This document shows, piece by piece, positions 3,368 through 14,983 of a DNA stretch of 29,282 nt (position 1 is the first letter of the stretch; each line of letters starts with the position of its first letter). Below the pieces are notes generated by a model. The model made no database searches. It was not told the DNA's origin and was given only the letters and a program-made list of their open reading frames with translations. The DNA comes from an uncultured Gammaproteobacteria bacterium. Lineage in GTDB: Bacteria > Patescibacteriota > Patescibacteriia > UBA1558 > 2-01-FULL-52-15. The stretch covers positions 29,254 through 58,535 of the forward strand of contig CAYYYA010000001.1 in assembly GCA_964475975.1 (NCBI GenBank), read 5' to 3'. Both the position numbers and the translations under genes were made by a program.

Positions 3368-3823
3368 ATGTCAGAACAAGTATTTGAACCCTCGCTGCGA
3401 CCAGAATTACCGCCGACTCCAGAACAACAAAGCGAACAACCTCAGGTAGCGACGTCAGAGCAACAGGTGCCGAGTATAGATGTGAAATCACCTGTGATAT
3501 CTCCATCGCAATCTCGTGCGCCTGTTTTACCTAAGGATAAAGATCCGCAGCTCGTTGAGATCGAGTCTATTTTGTCGGACGGGCTCGATCAGGCTTATAT
3601 TTCGTTAACGCTAGATAAACGGCAGCAATTTCGTACTGAAGGGGAAATCTTGGCTCGTACTATTCAGTCAATGATTCAAAGCGGCAAAGTAAATATCAAA
3701 AAAATTAGGAATTTAATCATTCGATGGTTGAGAGTTATTCCAGGTGTTAATCGTTATTTTTTAGAACAGGAAGCCAAGATTAAAACTGATAGAATCTCAG
3801 AGATGAAGTCAGACTCCGTATGA
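3368..3823 (+). CDS. Hypothetical protein, translationally coupled to the downstream ATPase
   Basis: Likely start is ATG 3368 (MSEQVFEP), just after a -10 box. Pro/Gln-rich N-terminus and a helical C-terminal domain (WLRVIPGVNRYFLEQEAKIKTD). ATGA overlap with the next gene. Confidence 0.75.
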   Translation: MSEQVFEPSLRPELPPTPEQQSEQPQVATSEQQVPSIDVKSPVISPSQSRAPVLPKDKDPQLVEIESILSDGLDQAYISLTLDKRQQFRTEGEILARTIQSMIQSGKVNIKKIRNLIIRWLRVIPGVNRYFLEQEAKIKTDRISEMKSDSV

Positions 3824-6336
3824 TGTTACAAGCTCCCATTATTATTAACACTCAGCCGAGTGGCACGGACTTTATATTTCTGCCGTATATCTTAGGCTTG
3901 TTAGCTACGGTTATTGTATTGTGGGTACTATTTTTGATTGCTCGATTATTCCTGAAACGCGAACCAAAGCTAAAGATTTTTCTCCTGACGGTGCCAAAAT
4001 ATGATTCTCTCAGTCAAGCGGAGAATGAAGCGGCTCAGCATATAAAAGAACAGCTGTCTCACGTTGAGAATCTGTTTGCTGCCTTAGGGGCCTTACGAGC
4101 TGAAGGTGGATGGAAGGCTTGGCTCTTCGGACGGCAAGATTATTTTGCTCTGGAGATAGTTGCACGTCAGGGAGAGATTTCCTTCTATTGCGGTGTTAGT
4201 GAACCGCAGGTAGAGTTTTTTATCCATGTGCTGCAGTCAGTACATCCAAATGTGCATTACCAAGAAGTTGCGGACTATAATATTTTCCCGCCGCAGGGAT
4301 TTGTTGCTTGCAGTTATCTTAAGTTGAGTCGTGATGTGATGTTTCCGATTAAGACGTATCAGTTATTTGATTTTGATCCCTTAGAGACATTAACAAATGT
4401 GTTGAGCAAGCTAGAAACTGGCGAGAGCTTAGTCATACAATACATTATCCGTTCTGCACACCGCGTCTGGCATCAGCGTGGCGTGAAAACGGCCAAAGCT
4501 TTGAATAGTGGTAAAGGATTAAAAGAGGCAATGGCCGGACAAAGCTCGCAGCAGTCTATGGTTGGTAAGGGTTTGTCTAGTGTTTTTTCTACTGTTCTAA
4601 CAACCACACGTAGTCAGTCAGAGAAGCCAAAGCCAGGTGAGCAACCGAAAGAACCAAAAGTTGCTTCACAGCTGGAGATTCAAATGGCTAAGGCTCTAGA
4701 GGAGAAAGCTAATAAAGCTGGTTTGGACGTTAATATTCGCTTAATCAGTGTCTCAACCAACAAAGTGCACGTTGATGCTAATCTCCGAGGATTAATCAAT
4801 GCCTATGGTCAGTTTAATATTTATGAAACAGGTAATAGCTTCCGTGCCAAACAGCTACATTCGCGCGACCGTTTGATTAAGGATTTTATTTATCGCCGTT
4901 TTGATCAGAGCGCACTTTGTCTATTCAACGCAGAAGAGATGGTAGGTTTGTGGCATCTGCCGGGTGCAACGATTGCGACTCCGAATATTCGGTGGTTGGA
5001 AGCTCGTAGCGCGCCACCGCCACGCGACTTGCCGACGAGAGGACTATTATTGGGCCACTCTGTGTACCGTGGCCAGAGCTTCCCTGTGCGTATGAAGGAT
5101 GAAGATAGGAGACGTCATACCTATATCATCGGTCAAACCGGTACGGGTAAGACGGTATTGATGGGTAATTTGATGTTGCAAGATATTCAAGCGGGGAAAG
5201 GCTGTTGTCTGATAGACCCTCACGGTGATTTGGTAGAGGCGCTTCTCGGATTGATACCACCGGATCGTGAGAAAGATGTTATTGTTTTTGACCCGTCAGA
5301 CACCTCACGGCCAATGGGACTTAACATGCTGGAATTCTTCAACGCAGATCAGAAAACATTAGTCATCAATGAGATGATTAATATCTTTGATAAGTTGTAT
5401 GATCTGAAAAAAACGGGCGGTCCGATCTTTGAACAATATATGCGCAACACCTTACTCCTGATGATGGAGGACGTGGAATCTGGCTGTAGTTTGATGGAAG
5501 TGGCTAAAGTGCTGGCCGATGAGAATTTCCGTAAATATAAATTAAGCAAAGCTACCAATCCAGTGGTCCGTGATTTTTGGCTCAAAGAAGCGCATAAAGC
5601 TGGCGGTGAGGCATCACTGGCCAATATGGTACCGTATATCACCAGTAAGCTGACGCAGTTCACTGCCAATGATATCATGCGACCAATCATTGCTCAGCAG
5701 ACGAGCTCCTTCAATTTCCGAGACATAATGGATCAAAGGAAGATTTTATTAGTCAATTTATCAAAAGGTAAAATTGGTGAGTTGAACAGCAACCTATTAG
5801 GTTTGATAATTGTTGGTAAAATATTAATCGCTGCTTTATCTCGCGTTGACACAGCAGAAGAGGAGCGAGCTGATTTTTATCTTTATATTGATGAGTTCCA
5901 AAACTTCCTAACGGACAGTATTGCTGTTATACTATCTGAAGCGCGAAAGTATCGTTTGAATCTGACGATGGCTCATCAATATATCAGTCAGTTGGTACGA
6001 GACGGTGATACCAAGATTCGAGATGCTGTTTTCGGAAATGTCGGTACGAAGATTGCGTTTCGTATTGGCGCCGAGGATGCTGAAACATTGAAAAAAGAAT
6101 TTACTCCTGTTTTTAGTGACTACGACCTCTTGAATATTTCCAAAAATAATGCTTATATTAAGTTGTTGATTGATAATCAAAATCCACCGGCATTTAATAT
6201 TAAATTAGAACCGCCGAAGAAAGGTGATCCGCAAATAGCTACTCGCTTAAAAGAACAGTCACGTATACAATACGGTAGACCTCGTGAAGAAGTAGAGCAA
6301 GAGATTATCAAACGTTCCGGAATGATAGTGAGCTAA
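3820..6336 (+). CDS. Membrane-anchored VirD4/TraD/HerA-like P-loop ATPase (type IV coupling protein-like)
   Basis: N-terminal TM helix; RRRHTYIIGQTGTGKT (Walker A), LIDPHGDL, LYIDEFQNF (Walker B), SEARKYRLNLTMAHQ; 838 aa. Confidence 0.85.
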   Translation: MMLQAPIIINTQPSGTDFIFLPYILGLLATVIVLWVLFLIARLFLKREPKLKIFLLTVPKYDSLSQAENEAAQHIKEQLSHVENLFAALGALRAEGGWKAWLFGRQDYFALEIVARQGEISFYCGVSEPQVEFFIHVLQSVHPNVHYQEVADYNIFPPQGFVACSYLKLSRDVMFPIKTYQLFDFDPLETLTNVLSKLETGESLVIQYIIRSAHRVWHQRGVKTAKALNSGKGLKEAMAGQSSQQSMVGKGLSSVFSTVLTTTRSQSEKPKPGEQPKEPKVASQLEIQMAKALEEKANKAGLDVNIRLISVSTNKVHVDANLRGLINAYGQFNIYETGNSFRAKQLHSRDRLIKDFIYRRFDQSALCLFNAEEMVGLWHLPGATIATPNIRWLEARSAPPPRDLPTRGLLLGHSVYRGQSFPVRMKDEDRRRHTYIIGQTGTGKTVLMGNLMLQDIQAGKGCCLIDPHGDLVEALLGLIPPDREKDVIVFDPSDTSRPMGLNMLEFFNADQKTLVINEMINIFDKLYDLKKTGGPIFEQYMRNTLLLMMEDVESGCSLMEVAKVLADENFRKYKLSKATNPVVRDFWLKEAHKAGGEASLANMVPYITSKLTQFTANDIMRPIIAQQTSSFNFRDIMDQRKILLVNLSKGKIGELNSNLLGLIIVGKILIAALSRVDTAEEERADFYLYIDEFQNFLTDSIAVILSEARKYRLNLTMAHQYISQLVRDGDTKIRDAVFGNVGTKIAFRIGAEDAETLKKEFTPVFSDYDLLNISKNNAYIKLLIDNQNPPAFNIKLEPPKKGDPQIATRLKEQSRIQYGRPREEVEQEIIKRSGMIVS

Positions 6337-8649: not shown

Positions 8650-11600
8650 ATGAATACAACATTTTTAAATACAACAGAGCCGATAAATGCTTCAGGCCCT
8701 GTCGGTCAAATACCAACCAAGCCACATACTAAAAAAGCCGTGCTGGTTGGCATTATGGCTCTCATAGGTCTCTGTCTCATAGCAGGGATTTATTATTTTT
8801 TTACAGCAGTTCGGCCAAATCATCTCCCTCCACTGCAAGCTCGTGGTGAAGTTGTTATTGTAGCGGAGCAGAAAGATTCTACCGGAATTGATCCGGCCAC
8901 ACATTTTACTGTTGGTACTATTAAAGAAGTAGATACAGAACAGCTAAAAAAAGCCATTTCCATCAATCCTCCAGTTGATTTTGCCCTAAAAAAAGAACCG
9001 AAACGAACAGCAGGCACTTTTGATCTGATTCGTAGAGCCTTAGCGCAAGGCGATTTACGAGAATTGGCTTATACCTATACCCTCACACCTGCCACTACCT
9101 TAAATCCTGATACTGTGTATGCGTTGGCCGTGCATGACTCTGCAATTGCTAGTGACGATTATAGCTTTGCTTTTCAGGTACGCTCAGGTTTCAAAATTAC
9201 CGCTACGCATCCCCGAGATAAAGTCGCTCAGATTCCAGTCAATACAGGTATAGAGATTACCTTTAACCGCTTTGAATTAAAAGACCCTGAGAAATTTATC
9301 ACTATCGAACCAGCAGTTAAGGGTTCTTTTTCGGTGCGAAGAGATACGGTAGTTTTTGTACCAGAAAAGCTTAACCCAGGAACTATATATACAATTCATG
9401 TGAGTAAGGATCTGCAGACAGTTGGATCAGCCGAAACGTTAGGACAGGACTATAGCTTTGCCTTCGAGACAGCCGACATAAATCAGCGCGAAGGATCAGT
9501 AGCCTATTTCAATTTTGGTCGTGAAGTGGTTGATATTTTGCCGGGGAAAAAACCGGTGCTATCGTTCTATGCCACCAACATTGCTGATAATCAATTTCAA
9601 GCTTCACTCTACAGAGTAAAATCAGTAGATGATTTTACTGATTCGTATATCAAGAGTCGCACGTGGGATTTAGGTTGGTCGTATTATTACAACCGAACAG
9701 GTCAATTGAATGTCAATCCAGACGAATCGTTGAAGGTCGCTAGCTTTGACCCAACAGTTGTGACAGACGGCTATCAAAAGTATCTAGAGTTACCAGAAAG
9801 TTTGACTGAAGGTTTTTATCTTTTTAAAGTACAGGCCAAAGGACTCACTCGGTGGGCGTGGCTTCAAGTTACCCCATTTGATTATTACTTTACCCTCAGT
9901 CAAGAGCGGGGATTGGTTTGGTTGTACGACAATACTTCGCGCCAACCAGTGTCCGGGGCTGATATAGCTTTAATGCAAACGGGTGGACAATCAGTTAATA
10001 TCAAAAAAACTGATGATCAGGGTTTGGTAGATTTTCCGTTACCCCCAAGTCTCTTGGCTACAACTGCTGTGCCTAAATTTTTTGAAATAAATAAGGGAAA
10101 CTCGACGAGAGCGATTTTGATACGAGATCGTTGGGGTTATGGTTCTGGTATAGCATCCGGCGACGGGTACTGGGACTCGCTACGTACAGATCGTTACGTT
10201 TATCAACTGAGTGATAAGATAAATTATTGGGGTATTATCAAGGGTAGGTCAGAGGACTTACGGCAACAAAAAGTAACTGTCGCTCTCTATCCCGGATATT
10301 TCTATGGTTTCTATGATACTTGGGGTTCTCCTTCTGATAGTTCTAAGGCTTTGGTAAAGCAAGAGGTAATGATTTCTGGATATGATACTATTGAAGGCCA
10401 GCTTAATTTTACAGGAGTTGCTCCAGGGACATATCAAGTTGTGGTATTGCAGGGTGAAAAAGTACTCAGTCAGCGTAGTATTGAGATTCAGGCTTTTAGT
10501 AAACCAGCTTATCAGATAATGGTGACGCCGTCGAAACATGTAGCTTTTGCTGATGAGGAGTTGAAGTTTGATGTTAAGGCTGAGTTATTTGACGGAACGC
10601 CAGCGGCTAATGTTGAACTTAAGTATGATTTTTATTGGGCTGGTAATCAATCTGGCAGGATAAAGCTTGATAATCGAGGTGAAGGAGTGATCCGGTTTAC
10701 ACCTGCCTACATTCCTGAGTCGCCAGAAGGATATGACGGCTATCCACGGTCTTTGACTCTTAATATTAACGCTGTTAAAGCTGAAGAAGGAAGCATATAT
10801 GCTGATAGTAATGTTTGGGTTTTTGGGCCGAAGGTTTTACTCCAAGTCAGCGGACAAGACACAGGAGGAGAAACGAGAACACTAACAGCTAAGGTAAACA
10901 ATGTGACCCTCGGTGACGGATCGCAGGAGTATTCATATAATTCAAATGAATTTATAGGAGGTCCTGCAGTAAATAAAACCGTAAAGGCGCAGGTTATTAA
11001 ACGCACCTATATCAAACAAGAAACTGGTCAACATTATGACCCTGTCTATAAATTAACCTATAAGACGTATAACTATACTTTCCGAGATGATGTTATTCGT
11101 CGGGAGACGGGCACAACAAATAGTGCTGGTGAGTGGTCATTGGTTCAATCGTTTCCCAAGGAAGATATGGTGACGTATTTTGTCAAAATGGAAACAGCTG
11201 ACTCCCAAGGAAAGGTTGATTACGCTAATTACTCTATTTGGAATTTTGATACCAATAATCCTGCGCCATCTACCGTGGAATTACAGTTCTCAGGCCAAAC
11301 TGCAAATAATGAGAAAGCATTTGCTCTCAACTCTCCGATAGACATTCAGGTCAAACGCGTAGGCGTAGCCAACGATCAGCCAGTTCTGTGGTATCGATAC
11401 CAGAATTCTTTAACTGCTAGTGGCGTTATTAAGAATAATTCAATTATTGATAAATTTGTTGACTCTTATGCGCCGAATATACGCTATCGTGCCGTTGTTT
11501 ATGGCCAGCAAGGTTTCTCTGAGTCACAAGAACTTGGCGCTGTATTACAAACAGCGGATAAGACTCTAGATATCTCAATAACAAGTGATAAAGCTAGTTA

Positions 11601-14118
11601 CAGACCGAAAGAAACAGTAAATTTAACGGTAGCAGTTAAAGATAAGAATAACGTAGGGGGAATAGCAGAGTTAAATATTGCAGCTGTTGATGAAGCGCTG
11701 TTTCATGTTTTGCCAGAGTACTGGCAAGAAAATTTAGCTTCTAGTTTATATCGGAAGATCTATGTTACACCGCTGACCGGATGGTCGCGTCTTGATACTT
11801 CACGCCAAGATTTGAGCGGTGCAGAAAAGGGAGGTTGTTTCACTGGAGACACGCCTATTATAATGGCAGATGGAAAAAAGAAAAAAATTCAGGATATTAA
11901 TCCTGGTGATATGATTGCCACCTTTGCTTCTGATCAGAATCATAATATAGAGACGGCAGTGGTCCAGGGCGTGTCGTCGCACCAGGTAGCTGATTATCTG
12001 ATTATCAACAGGGAGCTAAAGGTCACCCGGGAACACCCACTCTATATTAATAATCAGTGGACAGTGGCCGGAGCCGCTAAGCTGGGCGATGAATTGCTTC
12101 GGGCAGATGGATCGTACGTTGGTATTACCAGTATCAAACAGGTGAAAGCTCCTGGCACGTGGGTATATAACATGACTGTTGGTACTTATCATACGTATTT
12201 AGCTGACGGCTTCTATGCTCATAATGCTGAAAAAGGCGGTTCACCTCGCGCTGACTTTGTTGATGCTCCATTATTCAGAAGCCTACGTACAGATAGTACT
12301 GGAACAGCTAAACTTTCATTTCAAGCACCTGATAATATTACTTCTTGGAGAGTGACTGCTCTGGCATACCAGTCTCAGAGTATAAGCGCTGGTGAACAGT
12401 CAAAGTTAATACCCGTTACATTACCGTTTTTCGTTGACGTTGTTAGCTCGCCAACTTTTTTGACCGGAGATCAACCTCAGATTACAGCCCGACTATTTGG
12501 CACAGCCTATGATTCTAATAAGCCGATTGATCTATCCGCCAACAGCTCTAGTCTAAATTTGCAAACCGGTCAAACCACAATAGCTCAGTTTTCTAGAATA
12601 CCACTAGGTAGAATGGTGGCAGGAGAACATGAAGTAACTGTGCGGGCACAGCAGGGTAAGCTAGCTGATGCGGTAACGCGTAAGATTAATGTCGTTGACA
12701 GCTATTTCAAAACAGTTGTCGCTTCTAATTACCTTCTGACTAATCCAGACATTAAAGTTAAAGGTAATGATAAAGGCTTCACCACAATAAAGTTTGTTGA
12801 TCAAGGGAAAGGTAAGTATTTTTATCCTTTGTATTATCGCTCGACCCCAAGTATTCGTTTAGATGATACAGCTGCAAGTATTCTGGCGAGCGATATCCTC
12901 CATTCGGATTTTGATCAACTTGAGACAGATCGATCAAACGTATTGAACTATCAATTAGAAAACGGCGGACTAGCGCAGTTTATCTACTCTTCCGCCGACA
13001 CCGCCGTATCAGCCTTGGTTGCAGATGCTATACCGGATCGTTTCGGCCAGGAGGCTCTTGTCGGTTATTTCCAGGACCAACTGCGAACGCAGGATGTTGA
13101 TGGCATTGTCAGATTGCAGGCTCTGTACGGATTAGCCTCTTTGAAACAGCCGGTACTGACAGAATTGCAGACGATTGATAGCTCACGACTTGATTTTGAT
13201 CACTCGTTATATTTGGCTTTAGCTTTAGCTAAAGCTGGTGATTGGGAGTCAGCTCGTACAATCTACCGTACTACTATTCGACCGGCTCTTACCTTCGTGG
13301 ATGATCAAGCTTGGCTGACTAACCAAAAAGATGGAGATTTGCAAGCGAAGAAAACTGCACTGGTTGCGGTATTAGCAGGTCATATTCGTGAACGTGATGA
13401 TATTGATGACCTGTGGCGTTATATTGATAGTCATAATCCAACCTCTGACAGGGACAGTTTAGAAGAAGTTGTGGTCTTGAAAGATTTATTGACAATGACA
13501 ACTCCTAAATTAGCGAGCCTTACTTATACTGCTGGCACCAAGAAAGATACTTTTGAGCTGAGACCAGGTGAGAGTAAAACAATTAGACTGACGCCTGAAG
13601 AGCTGAAAGCGCTGACGTTCTCAGGTATATCTGGAGAACCTATGGCTATCAGCTATTACGATAACTATGGTAAACCGGAAGATATTAAGCAGGATAGCTC
13701 GATCTCGTTAACGAGAACTTATTCCGTAGATGGTAGAGAGACAAATACGTGGTCAGAGGGTGATATCGTCAAGATTACGTTACGTCCTCGGGTTAAAAAG
13801 AGCGTAAACAATGGCTATCAAATTACAGATTTCCTTCCGAGCGGCATCGTGCCAATCACCAACACGTATCAGCGAGGTCTAGGTGGTAGTGCTGATCCTT
13901 GTGATTCAACTTGGTATCCAATGACTATTCTACAGAATAGTATCAGCTTCACGTATCATTATTGGGAGCAGGCTCCAAAATGTTCTGATATGAGGATTAA
14001 TTATTATGCTCGGGTAGTAACTCCGGGAAATTATCGTGCTAATCCCGCTGTAATGCAGTCAAATGAGATTGGAACCAGTATAACTTTGACCAAAGAAAAT
14101 CGTGTTGAGATTAAATAA
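8650..14118 (+). CDS. Membrane-anchored alpha-2-macroglobulin-family protein with Ig-like domains and a Hint domain in the bait region; no CxEQ thioester
   Basis: Probable start ATG 8650 (TATACT 6 nt upstream; the ORF caller starts at 8608). N-terminal TM, two Ig-like repeats (HPRDKVAQIPVNTGIEITFN), MG domains (LRTDRYVYQLSDKINYWGII). AAVDEALF and RADF..RTDSTGTAKLSFQAPDNITSWRVTALA flank the bait region. QLENGG TED motif; C-terminal YYARVVTPGNYRANPA. Confidence 0.9.
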   Translation: MNTTFLNTTEPINASGPVGQIPTKPHTKKAVLVGIMALIGLCLIAGIYYFFTAVRPNHLPPLQARGEVVIVAEQKDSTGIDPATHFTVGTIKEVDTEQLKKAISINPPVDFALKKEPKRTAGTFDLIRRALAQGDLRELAYTYTLTPATTLNPDTVYALAVHDSAIASDDYSFAFQVRSGFKITATHPRDKVAQIPVNTGIEITFNRFELKDPEKFITIEPAVKGSFSVRRDTVVFVPEKLNPGTIYTIHVSKDLQTVGSAETLGQDYSFAFETADINQREGSVAYFNFGREVVDILPGKKPVLSFYATNIADNQFQASLYRVKSVDDFTDSYIKSRTWDLGWSYYYNRTGQLNVNPDESLKVASFDPTVVTDGYQKYLELPESLTEGFYLFKVQAKGLTRWAWLQVTPFDYYFTLSQERGLVWLYDNTSRQPVSGADIALMQTGGQSVNIKKTDDQGLVDFPLPPSLLATTAVPKFFEINKGNSTRAILIRDRWGYGSGIASGDGYWDSLRTDRYVYQLSDKINYWGIIKGRSEDLRQQKVTVALYPGYFYGFYDTWGSPSDSSKALVKQEVMISGYDTIEGQLNFTGVAPGTYQVVVLQGEKVLSQRSIEIQAFSKPAYQIMVTPSKHVAFADEELKFDVKAELFDGTPAANVELKYDFYWAGNQSGRIKLDNRGEGVIRFTPAYIPESPEGYDGYPRSLTLNINAVKAEEGSIYADSNVWVFGPKVLLQVSGQDTGGETRTLTAKVNNVTLGDGSQEYSYNSNEFIGGPAVNKTVKAQVIKRTYIKQETGQHYDPVYKLTYKTYNYTFRDDVIRRETGTTNSAGEWSLVQSFPKEDMVTYFVKMETADSQGKVDYANYSIWNFDTNNPAPSTVELQFSGQTANNEKAFALNSPIDIQVKRVGVANDQPVLWYRYQNSLTASGVIKNNSIIDKFVDSYAPNIRYRAVVYGQQGFSESQELGAVLQTADKTLDISITSDKASYRPKETVNLTVAVKDKNNVGGIAELNIAAVDEALFHVLPEYWQENLASSLYRKIYVTPLTGWSRLDTSRQDLSGAEKGGCFTGDTPIIMADGKKKKIQDINPGDMIATFASDQNHNIETAVVQGVSSHQVADYLIINRELKVTREHPLYINNQWTVAGAAKLGDELLRADGSYVGITSIKQVKAPGTWVYNMTVGTYHTYLADGFYAHNAEKGGSPRADFVDAPLFRSLRTDSTGTAKLSFQAPDNITSWRVTALAYQSQSISAGEQSKLIPVTLPFFVDVVSSPTFLTGDQPQITARLFGTAYDSNKPIDLSANSSSLNLQTGQTTIAQFSRIPLGRMVAGEHEVTVRAQQGKLADAVTRKINVVDSYFKTVVASNYLLTNPDIKVKGNDKGFTTIKFVDQGKGKYFYPLYYRSTPSIRLDDTAASILASDILHSDFDQLETDRSNVLNYQLENGGLAQFIYSSADTAVSALVADAIPDRFGQEALVGYFQDQLRTQDVDGIVRLQALYGLASLKQPVLTELQTIDSSRLDFDHSLYLALALAKAGDWESARTIYRTTIRPALTFVDDQAWLTNQKDGDLQAKKTALVAVLAGHIRERDDIDDLWRYIDSHNPTSDRDSLEEVVVLKDLLTMTTPKLASLTYTAGTKKDTFELRPGESKTIRLTPEELKALTFSGISGEPMAISYYDNYGKPEDIKQDSSISLTRTYSVDGRETNTWSEGDIVKITLRPRVKKSVNNGYQITDFLPSGIVPITNTYQRGLGGSADPCDSTWYPMTILQNSISFTYHYWEQAPKCSDMRINYYARVVTPGNYRANPAVMQSNEIGTSITLTKENRVEIK
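11836..12225 (+). other. Hint (intein-like, BIL/PT-HINT type) domain, 130 aa, inside the A2M protein
   Basis: Block A CFTGDTPIIMADG, block B LKVTREHPLYI (TxxH), block F/G VYNMTVGTYHTYLADGFYAHN. The +1 residue is Ala and there is no endonuclease domain. Confidence 0.92.
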
Positions 14119-14983
14119 GCAGAAACTACTTGTCGGAGGTTTATTGCTATTCATTATTATATTAGTCGTTTGGCGTCCTAGCGTCAGAAACGATTCGAAG
14201 CTTGTCCCGAAAAAAGCTAACTATCGGGTAGTCAACGATGGTGAGATGGTAACCGCTATAGAGCAGCTCAACCCTCTGACTAAAAGCACTGATTCTCCGC
14301 GGGTTTTTTTGGCTATTACATCACATCACATTCCCACTGCAGCCTATTTTATAGCCGATTTATTTCGTTATCTCTTGACCACTACCACAGCACACCCAAC
14401 GTTTATTGTTATTGGGCCTGATCATTATGAACGCTGTCCTTCCCGTGTAACTATTAGTAATCAGCCTTTTATTACCTCATTTGGCAAAGTTGACGTTGAT
14501 CAAGATATTTCTGAACGTTTGGGCTTGACGTTTGCTTATGAGACGAATGATTGTCTTGCGTCTGAACACGCTATAGCGACGGAAGCGCCCTTTATCGCTC
14601 GCACTTTCCCGCATTCAAAAATCGTGGGTATCACCTTGTCATCATCAGCCACCACAGAAGATATACAGACGTTAGCTGATGTATTGGATCAGATGAAAGA
14701 CAAAGTCATAATTTTGGAAAGTACAGATTTTTCTCATTATCTCCCTGTTGATCAAGCGCGCATGATAGATGATGAAACGGCTCAGATGATTAATGATTTA
14801 GACGTCGCAGCTATTACTTTGAAAAATTTAGATTCACCACCGACATTAAGATTGGTGATTGGCCTGGCTAAACGCTGGAATCTTAGACCAAAAATTTTGG
14901 AACAAAAGAATCTCTACGATCTTAATGGGCAGGCAGATAATACCACTGGTTATATCAATGCGGTTTTTGAGGAACAAGAGTAG
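14102..14983 (+). CDS. MEMO1 / AmmeMemoRadiSam protein B family protein with an N-terminal membrane anchor
   Basis: ITSHHIP, VIGPDHY, SEHAI and STDFSHY motifs; hydrophobic LLVGGLLLFIIILVVW; overlaps the A2M stop by 17 nt. Confidence 0.85.
   Translation: MLRLNKQKLLVGGLLLFIIILVVWRPSVRNDSKLVPKKANYRVVNDGEMVTAIEQLNPLTKSTDSPRVFLAITSHHIPTAAYFIADLFRYLLTTTTAHPTFIVIGPDHYERCPSRVTISNQPFITSFGKVDVDQDISERLGLTFAYETNDCLASEHAIATEAPFIARTFPHSKIVGITLSSSATTEDIQTLADVLDQMKDKVIILESTDFSHYLPVDQARMIDDETAQMINDLDVAAITLKNLDSPPTLRLVIGLAKRWNLRPKILEQKNLYDLNGQADNTTGYINAVFEEQE

Follow-up and report, generated by a model that had tools for sequence, protein, structure and literature searches.

To our knowledge, every protein of the alpha-2-macroglobulin (A2M) family, complement included, needs an outside protease to cut one particular loop. 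In complement C3, C4, and C5, this loop hosts an inserted domain, the anaphylatoxin, together with the site at which the protein is cut into two chains, and removal of the inserted domain triggers a conformational change. Bacterial members include the type I proteins of E. coli (ECAM, also called YfhM) and Salmonella and the type II protein MagD of Pseudomonas; these share a fold of MG, CUB, TED-like, and MG10 domains, are attached to the membrane, and have, ahead of MG7, a bait loop that is disordered. In ECAM, the disordered bait runs from Arg923 to Leu942, and its untethering drives activation (PMC4498604); the fragments of bait-cleaved MagD remain associated with one another (PMC5764988). 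Here, we describe an A2M gene in a 29,282-nucleotide stretch of contig CAYYYA010000001.1 (GenBank assembly GCA_964475975.1; hereafter the window) from an uncultured, ultra-small member of the Patescibacteria. The encoded protein carries a Hint domain in its bait loop, an arrangement shared by hundreds of relatives, and we therefore consider it probable that the trap cleaves or re-joins this trigger loop by itself.

Among Hint domains, the type-A bacterial intein-like (BIL) domains are of most relevance here. They end in His-Asn, which distinguishes them from type B, and lack a nucleophile at the first residue after the domain (+1) (PMC4031507). They form an N-terminal thioester and cyclize their terminal Asn, which leads mainly to cleavage and to some ligation via the freed alpha-amine (PMC4031507; PMC7664689). 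A BIL domain of Tetrahymena thermophila BUBL1, BIL2, is reported to join a Lys epsilon-amine to a C terminus in an isopeptide bond and, with no need for ATP, to attach the ubiquitin-like domain that precedes it to lysines (PMC8616854).

The initial annotation, made from the letters of the window, had put a 130-residue Hint domain (Cys1, TxxH, terminal His-Asn) between the motifs AAVDEALF and PRADF/PDNITSW, and the translation bore this out at the exact positions, with the three motifs starting at amino acids (aa) 1025, 1213, and 1241. In hidden Markov model searches, the A2M_BRD, Hint/PT-HINT, and A2M models all scored above their cutoffs and fell in the order BRD-Hint-MG7 (Table 1). Pfam PT-HINT (PF07591) matched aa 1092-1206 (42.3 bits, cutoff 27.7), Vint matched aa 1076-1153 (35.8 bits, cutoff 27), and the NCBIfam intein N-terminal and C-terminal models were both above cutoff. 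Elsewhere in the protein, bMG3 gave a weaker Pfam match, the C-terminal part aligned with the YfhM structures 4RTD and 5A42 in a profile search of the PDB, and the MG10-like fold was backed by the A2M match of the whole structural model. The CxEQ thioester motif is absent from the 1836-aa translation, and the protein has only four cysteines (residues 56, 1077, 1765, and 1792).

We modeled the protein with AlphaFold2 in two pieces, aa 640-1836 (75 homologues; mean predicted local distance difference test score (pLDDT) 85) and aa 1000-1300. In both models, the Hint is folded with a pLDDT of ∼85-98, and the segments on either side of it (aa ∼1050-1074 and ∼1208-1218) fall below 50, so the domain is predicted to hang from two flexible tethers, like the bait loop. 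A Foldseek search with the larger model returned native E. coli A2M first (5A42, E 7.5e-43) and Salmonella A2M second (4U48, E 1.5e-40), followed by A2ML1, CD109, TEP1, C5, and C3. Taken together, Foldseek and Pfam identify the MG ring, the CUB/TED-like region, and the C-terminal MG fold as those of a bacterial A2M, and structure prediction gives a folded Hint between disordered linkers, with the rest matching the native E. coli and Salmonella proteins.

To locate the Hint relative to solved A2M structures, we relied on profiles, as a single-sequence phmmer search (aa 900-1836 against the PDB) reached only the Hint. The placement profile was built from Hint-less relatives only. It aligned with human C5 at residues 575-628 before the loop, which correspond to the BRD of our protein (aa 945-1032), and at 785-944 after it. 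It covered ECAM 831-1018 (4RTD numbering) across the loop, and it matched human A2M at 729-811, the MG7 region, directly after the loop. The flexible loop between BRD and MG7 is therefore present, the ECAM alignment enclosing the disordered bait at 923-942. The profile places the loop between C5 residues 628 and 785, an interval that holds the beta/alpha processing site and the C5a domain; in human A2M, the bait is annotated at ∼690-728. Because the C5, ECAM, and human A2M alignments bracket the loop, we assign the Hint to the C-terminal edge of the bait region, between BRD and MG7. This is the topological spot where complement proteins carry their inserted domain and get cut into two chains. 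The earlier proposal that the Hint lies within the bait-region loop is thus upheld by profile alignment. The wording that it stands in place of the bait needs correction: the domain is inserted in a conserved Gly-rich loop and does not replace the bait, with ∼25-35 disordered residues left upstream.

Table 1. Features of the A2M-Hint gene and of the gene that follows it, in window coordinates
Feature	Position	Strand	Evidence
A2M-Hint gene, 1836 aa	8608..14118	+	Single uninterrupted ORF (open reading frame); ORF list and translation
N-terminal hydrophobic anchor, aa ∼44-68, after a Lys-rich stretch	8737..8811	+	Read from the translation
Big_5 bacterial Ig-like domain, aa 195-288	9190..9471	+	Pfam PF13205, 27.6 bits, cutoff 23.6
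A2M_BRD bait-region domain, aa 945-1032, ends AAVDEALF	11440..11703	+	PF07703, 25.9 bits, cutoff 22.7
Upstream disordered linker, aa ∼1050-1076, ends GAEKGG	11755..11835	+	pLDDT <50 in both models
Hint domain, 130 aa, aa 1077-1206, without endonuclease insert	11836..12225	+	PT-HINT match
Cys1077, Hint residue 1, candidate nucleophile for the N-S acyl shift	11836..11838	+	
Block B TxxH, T1140-R-E-H1143	12025..12036	+	
His1205-Asn1206, terminal His-Asn for predicted Asn cyclization	12220..12225	+	
Downstream disordered linker, AEKGGSPRADFV	12226..12261	+	pLDDT <50 in both models
A2M (MG7) domain, aa 1226-1297, includes PDNITSW	12283..12498	+	PF00207, 34.6 bits, cutoff 21
Helical TED-like domain, aa ∼1399-1629, without CxEQ	12802..13494	+	Helix-rich block, model residues 760-990
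MG10-like C-terminal domain, aa 1700-1817	13705..14058	+	bMG10, 21.8 bits, below the 26.2 cutoff
Memo-like membrane-anchored protein	14102..14983	+	Pfam PF01875, E 2.4e-16

The inserted domain reads as a type-A BIL, all of whose sequence-level features it carries. When the family profile was run against the PDB, the best match was the C. thermocellum BIL domain 2LWY (E 1e-18), ahead of true inteins (∼1e-8). In a Foldseek search with the Hint, BIL2 of Tetrahymena BUBL1 came nearest (6Y75/6TMM, E 4.5e-12, TMt 0.81-0.83, 27-28% identity), 2LWY gave a TMt of 0.85, and mini-inteins and Hedgehog (1AT0/6TYY) followed. With the C. thermocellum domain (2LWY; PF07591), our Hint shares the fold, Cys1, TxxH, the terminal His-Asn, the lack of a +1 nucleophile and of an endonuclease, and residence in a secreted or surface protein. 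The residue at +1, which opens the downstream linker, is Ala1207 and not the Cys, Ser, or Thr of a canonical class 1 intein. The BILs described so far are located in variable regions of proteins that are poorly conserved; this one, in contrast, occupies one constant position in the trigger loop of a large machine that works by conformational change, and the two have codiverged across hundreds of lineages. BIL2, the closest solved fold, which is regulated by Zn2+, likewise has Gly-Gly before Cys1 and hands its thioester to a lysine, and the A2M Hint is followed by a near-invariant Lys; however, the N-extein of BIL2 is ubiquitin-like and its host a ciliate, whereas here an A2M half and a bacterium take those places and lysine transfer is hypothetical. 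The Hedgehog autoprocessing domain shares the Hint fold and the Gly-Cys junction, and its thioester is resolved by an external nucleophile; it differs in having no terminal Asn cleavage and in having a sterol-recognition region, which the A2M Hint lacks.

We counted conservation across 217 A2M-Hint proteins with identities of 30-50%. The BRD-Hint-MG7 arrangement is present in all 217, and therefore the placement of the Hint in the A2M is not due to chance. Cys1 and the terminal His-Asn are each found in 217/217, the block B His is invariant, and the block B Thr is at least 90% conserved. Residues -2 and -1 (Gly1075-Gly1076 in our protein) are Gly-Gly in 198 of the proteins, and the +1 residue is non-nucleophilic in 208 (Asp, Ala, Gln, or Glu in 202; Ser or Thr in nine). 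The Hint is 126-133 aa long in every protein except one, where it measures 144 aa, and an endonuclease was found in 0/217. Mean pairwise identity is 0.46 for both the Hint and MG7 and 0.31-0.40 for most of the body, and a 1197-residue alignment has 36 invariant columns, 16 of which lie within or beside the Hint. The domain is under purifying selection. In homologues, which the initial annotation had suggested surveying for the same insertion, it is conserved and not decaying, although its distribution is patchy and includes at least one clean loss, described below.

This degree of conservation bears on whether the Hint could be chemically silent, acting in the bait loop as no more than a folded plug or decoy. 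Although inactive examples are known among Hint relatives, nothing more specific speaks for such a role; a structural function by itself would not need catalytic positions that are invariant in proteins this divergent. We regard a silent Hint as very improbable.

We infer instead that the domain very likely processes itself; that the protein might fire or mature itself or be released as two chains, as the initial annotation proposed, is one of three chemically plausible outcomes. The reading we rank first, with a probability of roughly 0.45, is that the Hint is a resident, functional BIL and that its main outcome is excision with a break in the chain, yielding a two-chain A2M. We consider this the most likely product because there is no +1 nucleophile and because characterized BILs mostly cleave. 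After export and folding, an N-S acyl shift at Gly1076-Cys1077 would generate a thioester, and Asn1206 would cyclize, with no +1 nucleophile to couple the two steps. The 14-kDa Hint would thereby be excised and the chain broken, leaving a membrane-anchored N-chain that ends in ...GAEKGG and a C-chain that starts with AEKGGSPR.... The two would probably remain bound to each other noncovalently, like the halves of bait-cleaved MagD or the chains of C3/C5. In this way, the protein would be cutting the very loop that is normally cut by an external protease, either as a maturation step or as a built-in, possibly conditional trigger, and the cut might alter the conformation of the A2M. In complement, it is furin and the convertases that cut and the inserted domain is a signaling peptide, whereas here the inserted domain would excise itself.

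Several considerations weigh against excision with a chain break. If self-cleavage were constitutive, the trap would appear to be wasted, most of all in the members that retain CxEQ (22 of 217 Hint-bearing proteins; ∼90% of the family lacks it); these would need either re-ligation or conditional cleavage. Simple cleavage also leaves the near-invariant Lys after His-Asn unexplained. Strict conservation of the catalytic residues is equally expected of a passenger that must splice to spare its host, and type-A BILs do show some ligation.

The sequences that flank the Hint speak to both the origin of the insertion and the role of this lysine. Hint-less relatives from Firmicutes, Chloroflexi, and Patescibacteria have a single Gly-rich loop, GAExGG-(E/G)GG, followed by R.DF.D; the set with this motif comprises loci L018, L020-L023, and L080-L104 and proteins P0054 and P0090-P0107. 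In Hint-bearing proteins, the domain lies between GG and the next residue (GAExGG/Cys...His-Asn/xEKGG, with slashes at the junctions). Since the Hint-less relatives hold one conserved loop, the apparent AEKGG repeat around the Hint is best read as an older pseudo-repeat, between whose halves the domain inserted. A fresh target-site duplication was considered and rejected on the same grounds. The two AEKGG copies differ at three synonymous sites in the DNA. Unlike the variable bait sequences of other bacterial A2Ms, the loop of this thioester-less subfamily carries a conserved motif, GAExGG(E/G)GG..R.DF. That a disordered loop should have such a motif points to a specific partner or protease, for which Gly-Gly endopeptidases would be a speculative candidate.

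In the downstream linker, Lys1209, Arg1214, and Phe1217 correspond to invariant columns (K, R, and F) in both alignments, and across the family the first Lys after His-Asn falls at +1 to +3 in 215/217. The equivalent residue is variable elsewhere. In 28 motif matches at Hint-less loci (the script put two of these matches outside the loop), it is K in 8, Q in 6, G in 4, R in 4, M in 2, S in 2, D in 1, and C in 1. In the upstream copy of Hint-bearing proteins, it is G in 29, K in 26, R in 9, M in 7, Q in 6, and E in 6. Because these sequences share ancestry, the counts serve as description and not as a statistical test. As the residue varies in both the Hint-less and the upstream copies, a lysine 2-3 residues after His-Asn is near-invariant solely in Hint-bearing proteins and is thus constrained specifically beside the Hint.

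One way to account for this constraint is that the epsilon-amine of a lysine attacks the Gly-Gly thioester made by the Hint. In cis, with Lys1209 as the acceptor, the product would be an isopeptide-branched but covalently continuous bait; in trans, a lysine on an attacking protease or on a host-cell surface protein would be captured covalently at the bait, without CxEQ. Such transfer has a precedent in BIL2, the nearest solved structure, which forms Lys isopeptides (PMC8616854). It would also make sense of the N-extein ending in Gly-Gly, of the conserved position of the Lys, and of the fact that most of the family lacks CxEQ, classical A2M thioesters also targeting protease lysines (PMC4498604). 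However, a Lys near His-Asn is found in unrelated Hint proteins and in the linkers of tandem Hints (HN-KGG-C) as well, which means that it could be a habit of the family or an aid to catalysis and not an acceptor. Loss of CxEQ does not follow gain of the Hint, and a junction thioester would be short-lived in water. Hand-off to a lysine strikes us as unlikely, though well above a silent Hint. Somewhat more doubtful is the related notion, drawn by analogy with ubiquitin-conjugating chemistry and BIL2, that the bait loop acts as a warhead, the Gly-Gly thioester being passed to Lys1209 or to a lysine of the target. If true, it would make this a thioester-less A2M capable of covalent capture or attachment on the surface of an episymbiont, independent of E1, E2, and E3 enzymes.

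The Hint-bearing design is widespread but uneven. A word-indexed search gave ∼88 A2M clusters with a Hint in the same position, the named ones all belonging to Patescibacteria groups, and an exhaustive profile search of 1.84 billion representatives gave 1388 proteins at E <= 1e-30; among the top 150 of these 1388, almost all were single full-length matches spanning the junctions. In a scan of species genomes, Hint-bearing loci were present in at least 16 named groups of the candidate phyla radiation (CPR), and Hint-less forms were present in Firmicutes and Chloroflexi. Among 400 sampled Patescibacteria species, ∼21 had a contiguous BRD-Hint-MG7 and ∼14 had a Hint-less A2M; of ∼20 sampled relatives from the same class as our genome, five matched, and all five were Hint-less. 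Presence of the Hint is thus patchy, with Hint-less A2Ms occurring in other Patescibacteria. Two genomes carry paralogues: G234 has one Hint-bearing and one Hint-less A2M, and G402 has two Hint-bearing ones.

Some A2M-Hint bins carry unexpected organism labels (loci L028, L038, L061, and L063; genomes G401, G402, G404, and G405). Those labeled Gammaproteobacteria, Pseudomonadales, or Nevskiaceae are only 0.7-1.2 Mb in size, and the labels look unreliable; a "Flavobacteriales" match, on a contig of 6.8 kb in a 4.1-Mb bin, probably reflects faulty binning. The DnaX of our own genome is closest to those of Komeilibacteria and Parcubacteria. Three further proteins (P0122, P0123, and P0125) are composed largely of Hint domains from this subfamily arranged in tandem: in P0122, eight of them are connected by very short linkers (for example, HN-KGG-C), and in P0125, three follow a pilin-like N terminus.

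A tree of the host proteins, built with the Hint removed, places Hint-bearing A2Ms in three deep clades, all with the insertion at the same site. The first is the thioester-less Big_5 clade, a separate clade to which our protein belongs; it is shared with Firmicutes and Chloroflexi and has Hint-less members interleaved. The other two keep CxEQ, and their sisters in the tree are Hint-less classical A2Ms (T3 with P0121, support 1.0; T2 with P0116, support only 0.66). Within a clade of 52 tips, 51 of them Hint-bearing, the Hint-less P0054 pairs with the Hint-bearing P0036 (support 1.0), and we interpret P0054 as a clean secondary loss of the Hint, the minimum being one such event. Identity of the Hint tracks that of the host within the main clade (r = 0.77), which indicates long coinheritance of the two. 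Across the deep clades, host identity drops to ∼19%, whereas the Hints share 42-43% identity, above the 36% that the within-clade trend predicts; in the Hint tree, Hints from the CxEQ clades branch among main-clade Hints. These observations lean toward the Hint having moved now and then from one A2M gene to another, at the homologous site, as opposed to ancient presence in all three clades, although the tree of 130 aa is weakly resolved and the excess in identity modest. The paralogues of G234 and G402 argue against rapid homogenization by a homing-type process. We also considered whether the Hint thioester compensates for the lost CxEQ. Codistribution does not support this as a rule: members of the same clade that have no Hint are likewise devoid of CxEQ, and, as noted above, a minority of Hint-bearing proteins keep it.

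This history is where BIL-type splicing has to be weighed. After cyclization of Asn1206, the alpha-amine of Ala1207 could attack the Gly1076 thioester and restore one chain, whose bait (...GAEKGG-AEKGGSPR...) would be ordinary apart from a slight gain in length. In that case, the Hint would be in essence an intein-like passenger that does little for itself in function, kept because loss of its activity would ruin the host protein. Type-A BILs are able to splice by this route (PMC4031507). A passenger would also fit the patchy distribution with its precise Hint-less alleles (P0054 beside P0036), the recurrence of one Hint family at one site in three deep clades, the nesting of the CxEQ-clade Hints, and the higher cross-clade identity of Hints than of hosts. 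Inteins usually insert in conserved motifs, as here in the most conserved motif of the loop, and the members with CxEQ need an intact bait. On the other side, none of the 217 proteins has an endonuclease, and the +1 residue is kept as Asp, Ala, Gln, or Glu with no drift back to the more efficient Cys, Ser, or Thr. The G234 and G402 paralogues coexist without homogenization, the Lys after His-Asn is constrained only with the Hint present, and the BILs characterized so far mainly cleave. Our genome (0.93 Mb) holds one A2M gene and one Hint copy, whose GC content (0.45) is similar to that of the gene (0.42); this counts against the passenger as well, and on these grounds we rejected a recently mobile intein in this genome. 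Overall, we judge splicing improbable as the main outcome, placing it behind excision with a chain break and ahead of transfer to a lysine.

Compared with described bacterial A2Ms, the protein is set apart by the Hint in its bait loop, by the Big_5 domain, and by a predicted transmembrane signal anchor in place of a lipoprotein signal. Big_5 is found in nearly all homologues and marks this A2M subfamily. The N-terminal hydrophobic helix reads as a predicted type II signal anchor, with the body of the protein extracellular. MagD likewise lacks CxEQ. We found no published account of an A2M with a Hint in the literature on A2M with Hint, intein, or BIL domains or on Hint domains in the CPR, and one Patescibacteria paper that cites bacterial A2M makes no mention of a Hint. 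Public annotation of these proteins says only "polymorphic toxin-type HINT domain-containing." Thus, the parts are known (bacterial A2M and type-A BIL), and their combination at a fixed trigger-loop site across hundreds of lineages is undescribed in the literature we found. An A2M with its own cutting or ligating chemistry in the loop would, if true, represent a new activation logic for an ancient defense fold and a rare example of a large machine that has recruited an intein-like domain, at a fixed site, for a function. Surface proteins of Patescibacteria are thought to mediate attachment to host bacteria and defense against them, so a design this widespread in the group may have consequences for life as an episymbiont. 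A compact extracellular Hint of 130 aa that has no +1 nucleophile and possibly forms Gly-Lys isopeptides could also serve protein engineering.

The gene neighborhood differs from those of both known types. Type I A2Ms (ECAM and the Salmonella protein) have CxEQ and a pbpC partner, both absent here, where the neighbors are dnaX and a Memo-like gene; type II A2Ms (MagD/YfaS) are thioester-less like ours, but their six-gene mag operon is absent at this locus. The Memo-like gene, which overlaps the A2M stop by 17 nucleotides, occupies the place that pbpC or the mag genes hold in Proteobacteria. It also lies downstream of the A2M in two distant Hint-bearing loci (P0021 and P0024) and after Hint-less Patescibacteria A2Ms at five loci (L018 and L020-L023). 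Because it accompanies Hint-bearing and Hint-less forms alike, it is a conserved downstream partner of the A2M subfamily irrespective of the Hint.

The likely start codon of the A2M-Hint ORF is the ATG at either 8632 or 8650, and an identical database protein of 1828 aa (P0002) starts at the former. A scan for promoters and terminators around the gene gave results no better than shuffled sequence. Farther upstream, positions 3820-6336 (+) encode an 838-aa protein with ATPase domains of a type IV secretion coupling protein (TrwB/TraG/VirD4-like), with a small ORF and dnaX lying between it and the A2M gene. The window has a GC content of 0.58 in its first kilobase; most of its length lies at 0.38-0.46, with local increases to 0.50-0.53 at 17-19 kb and at 22-23 kb.

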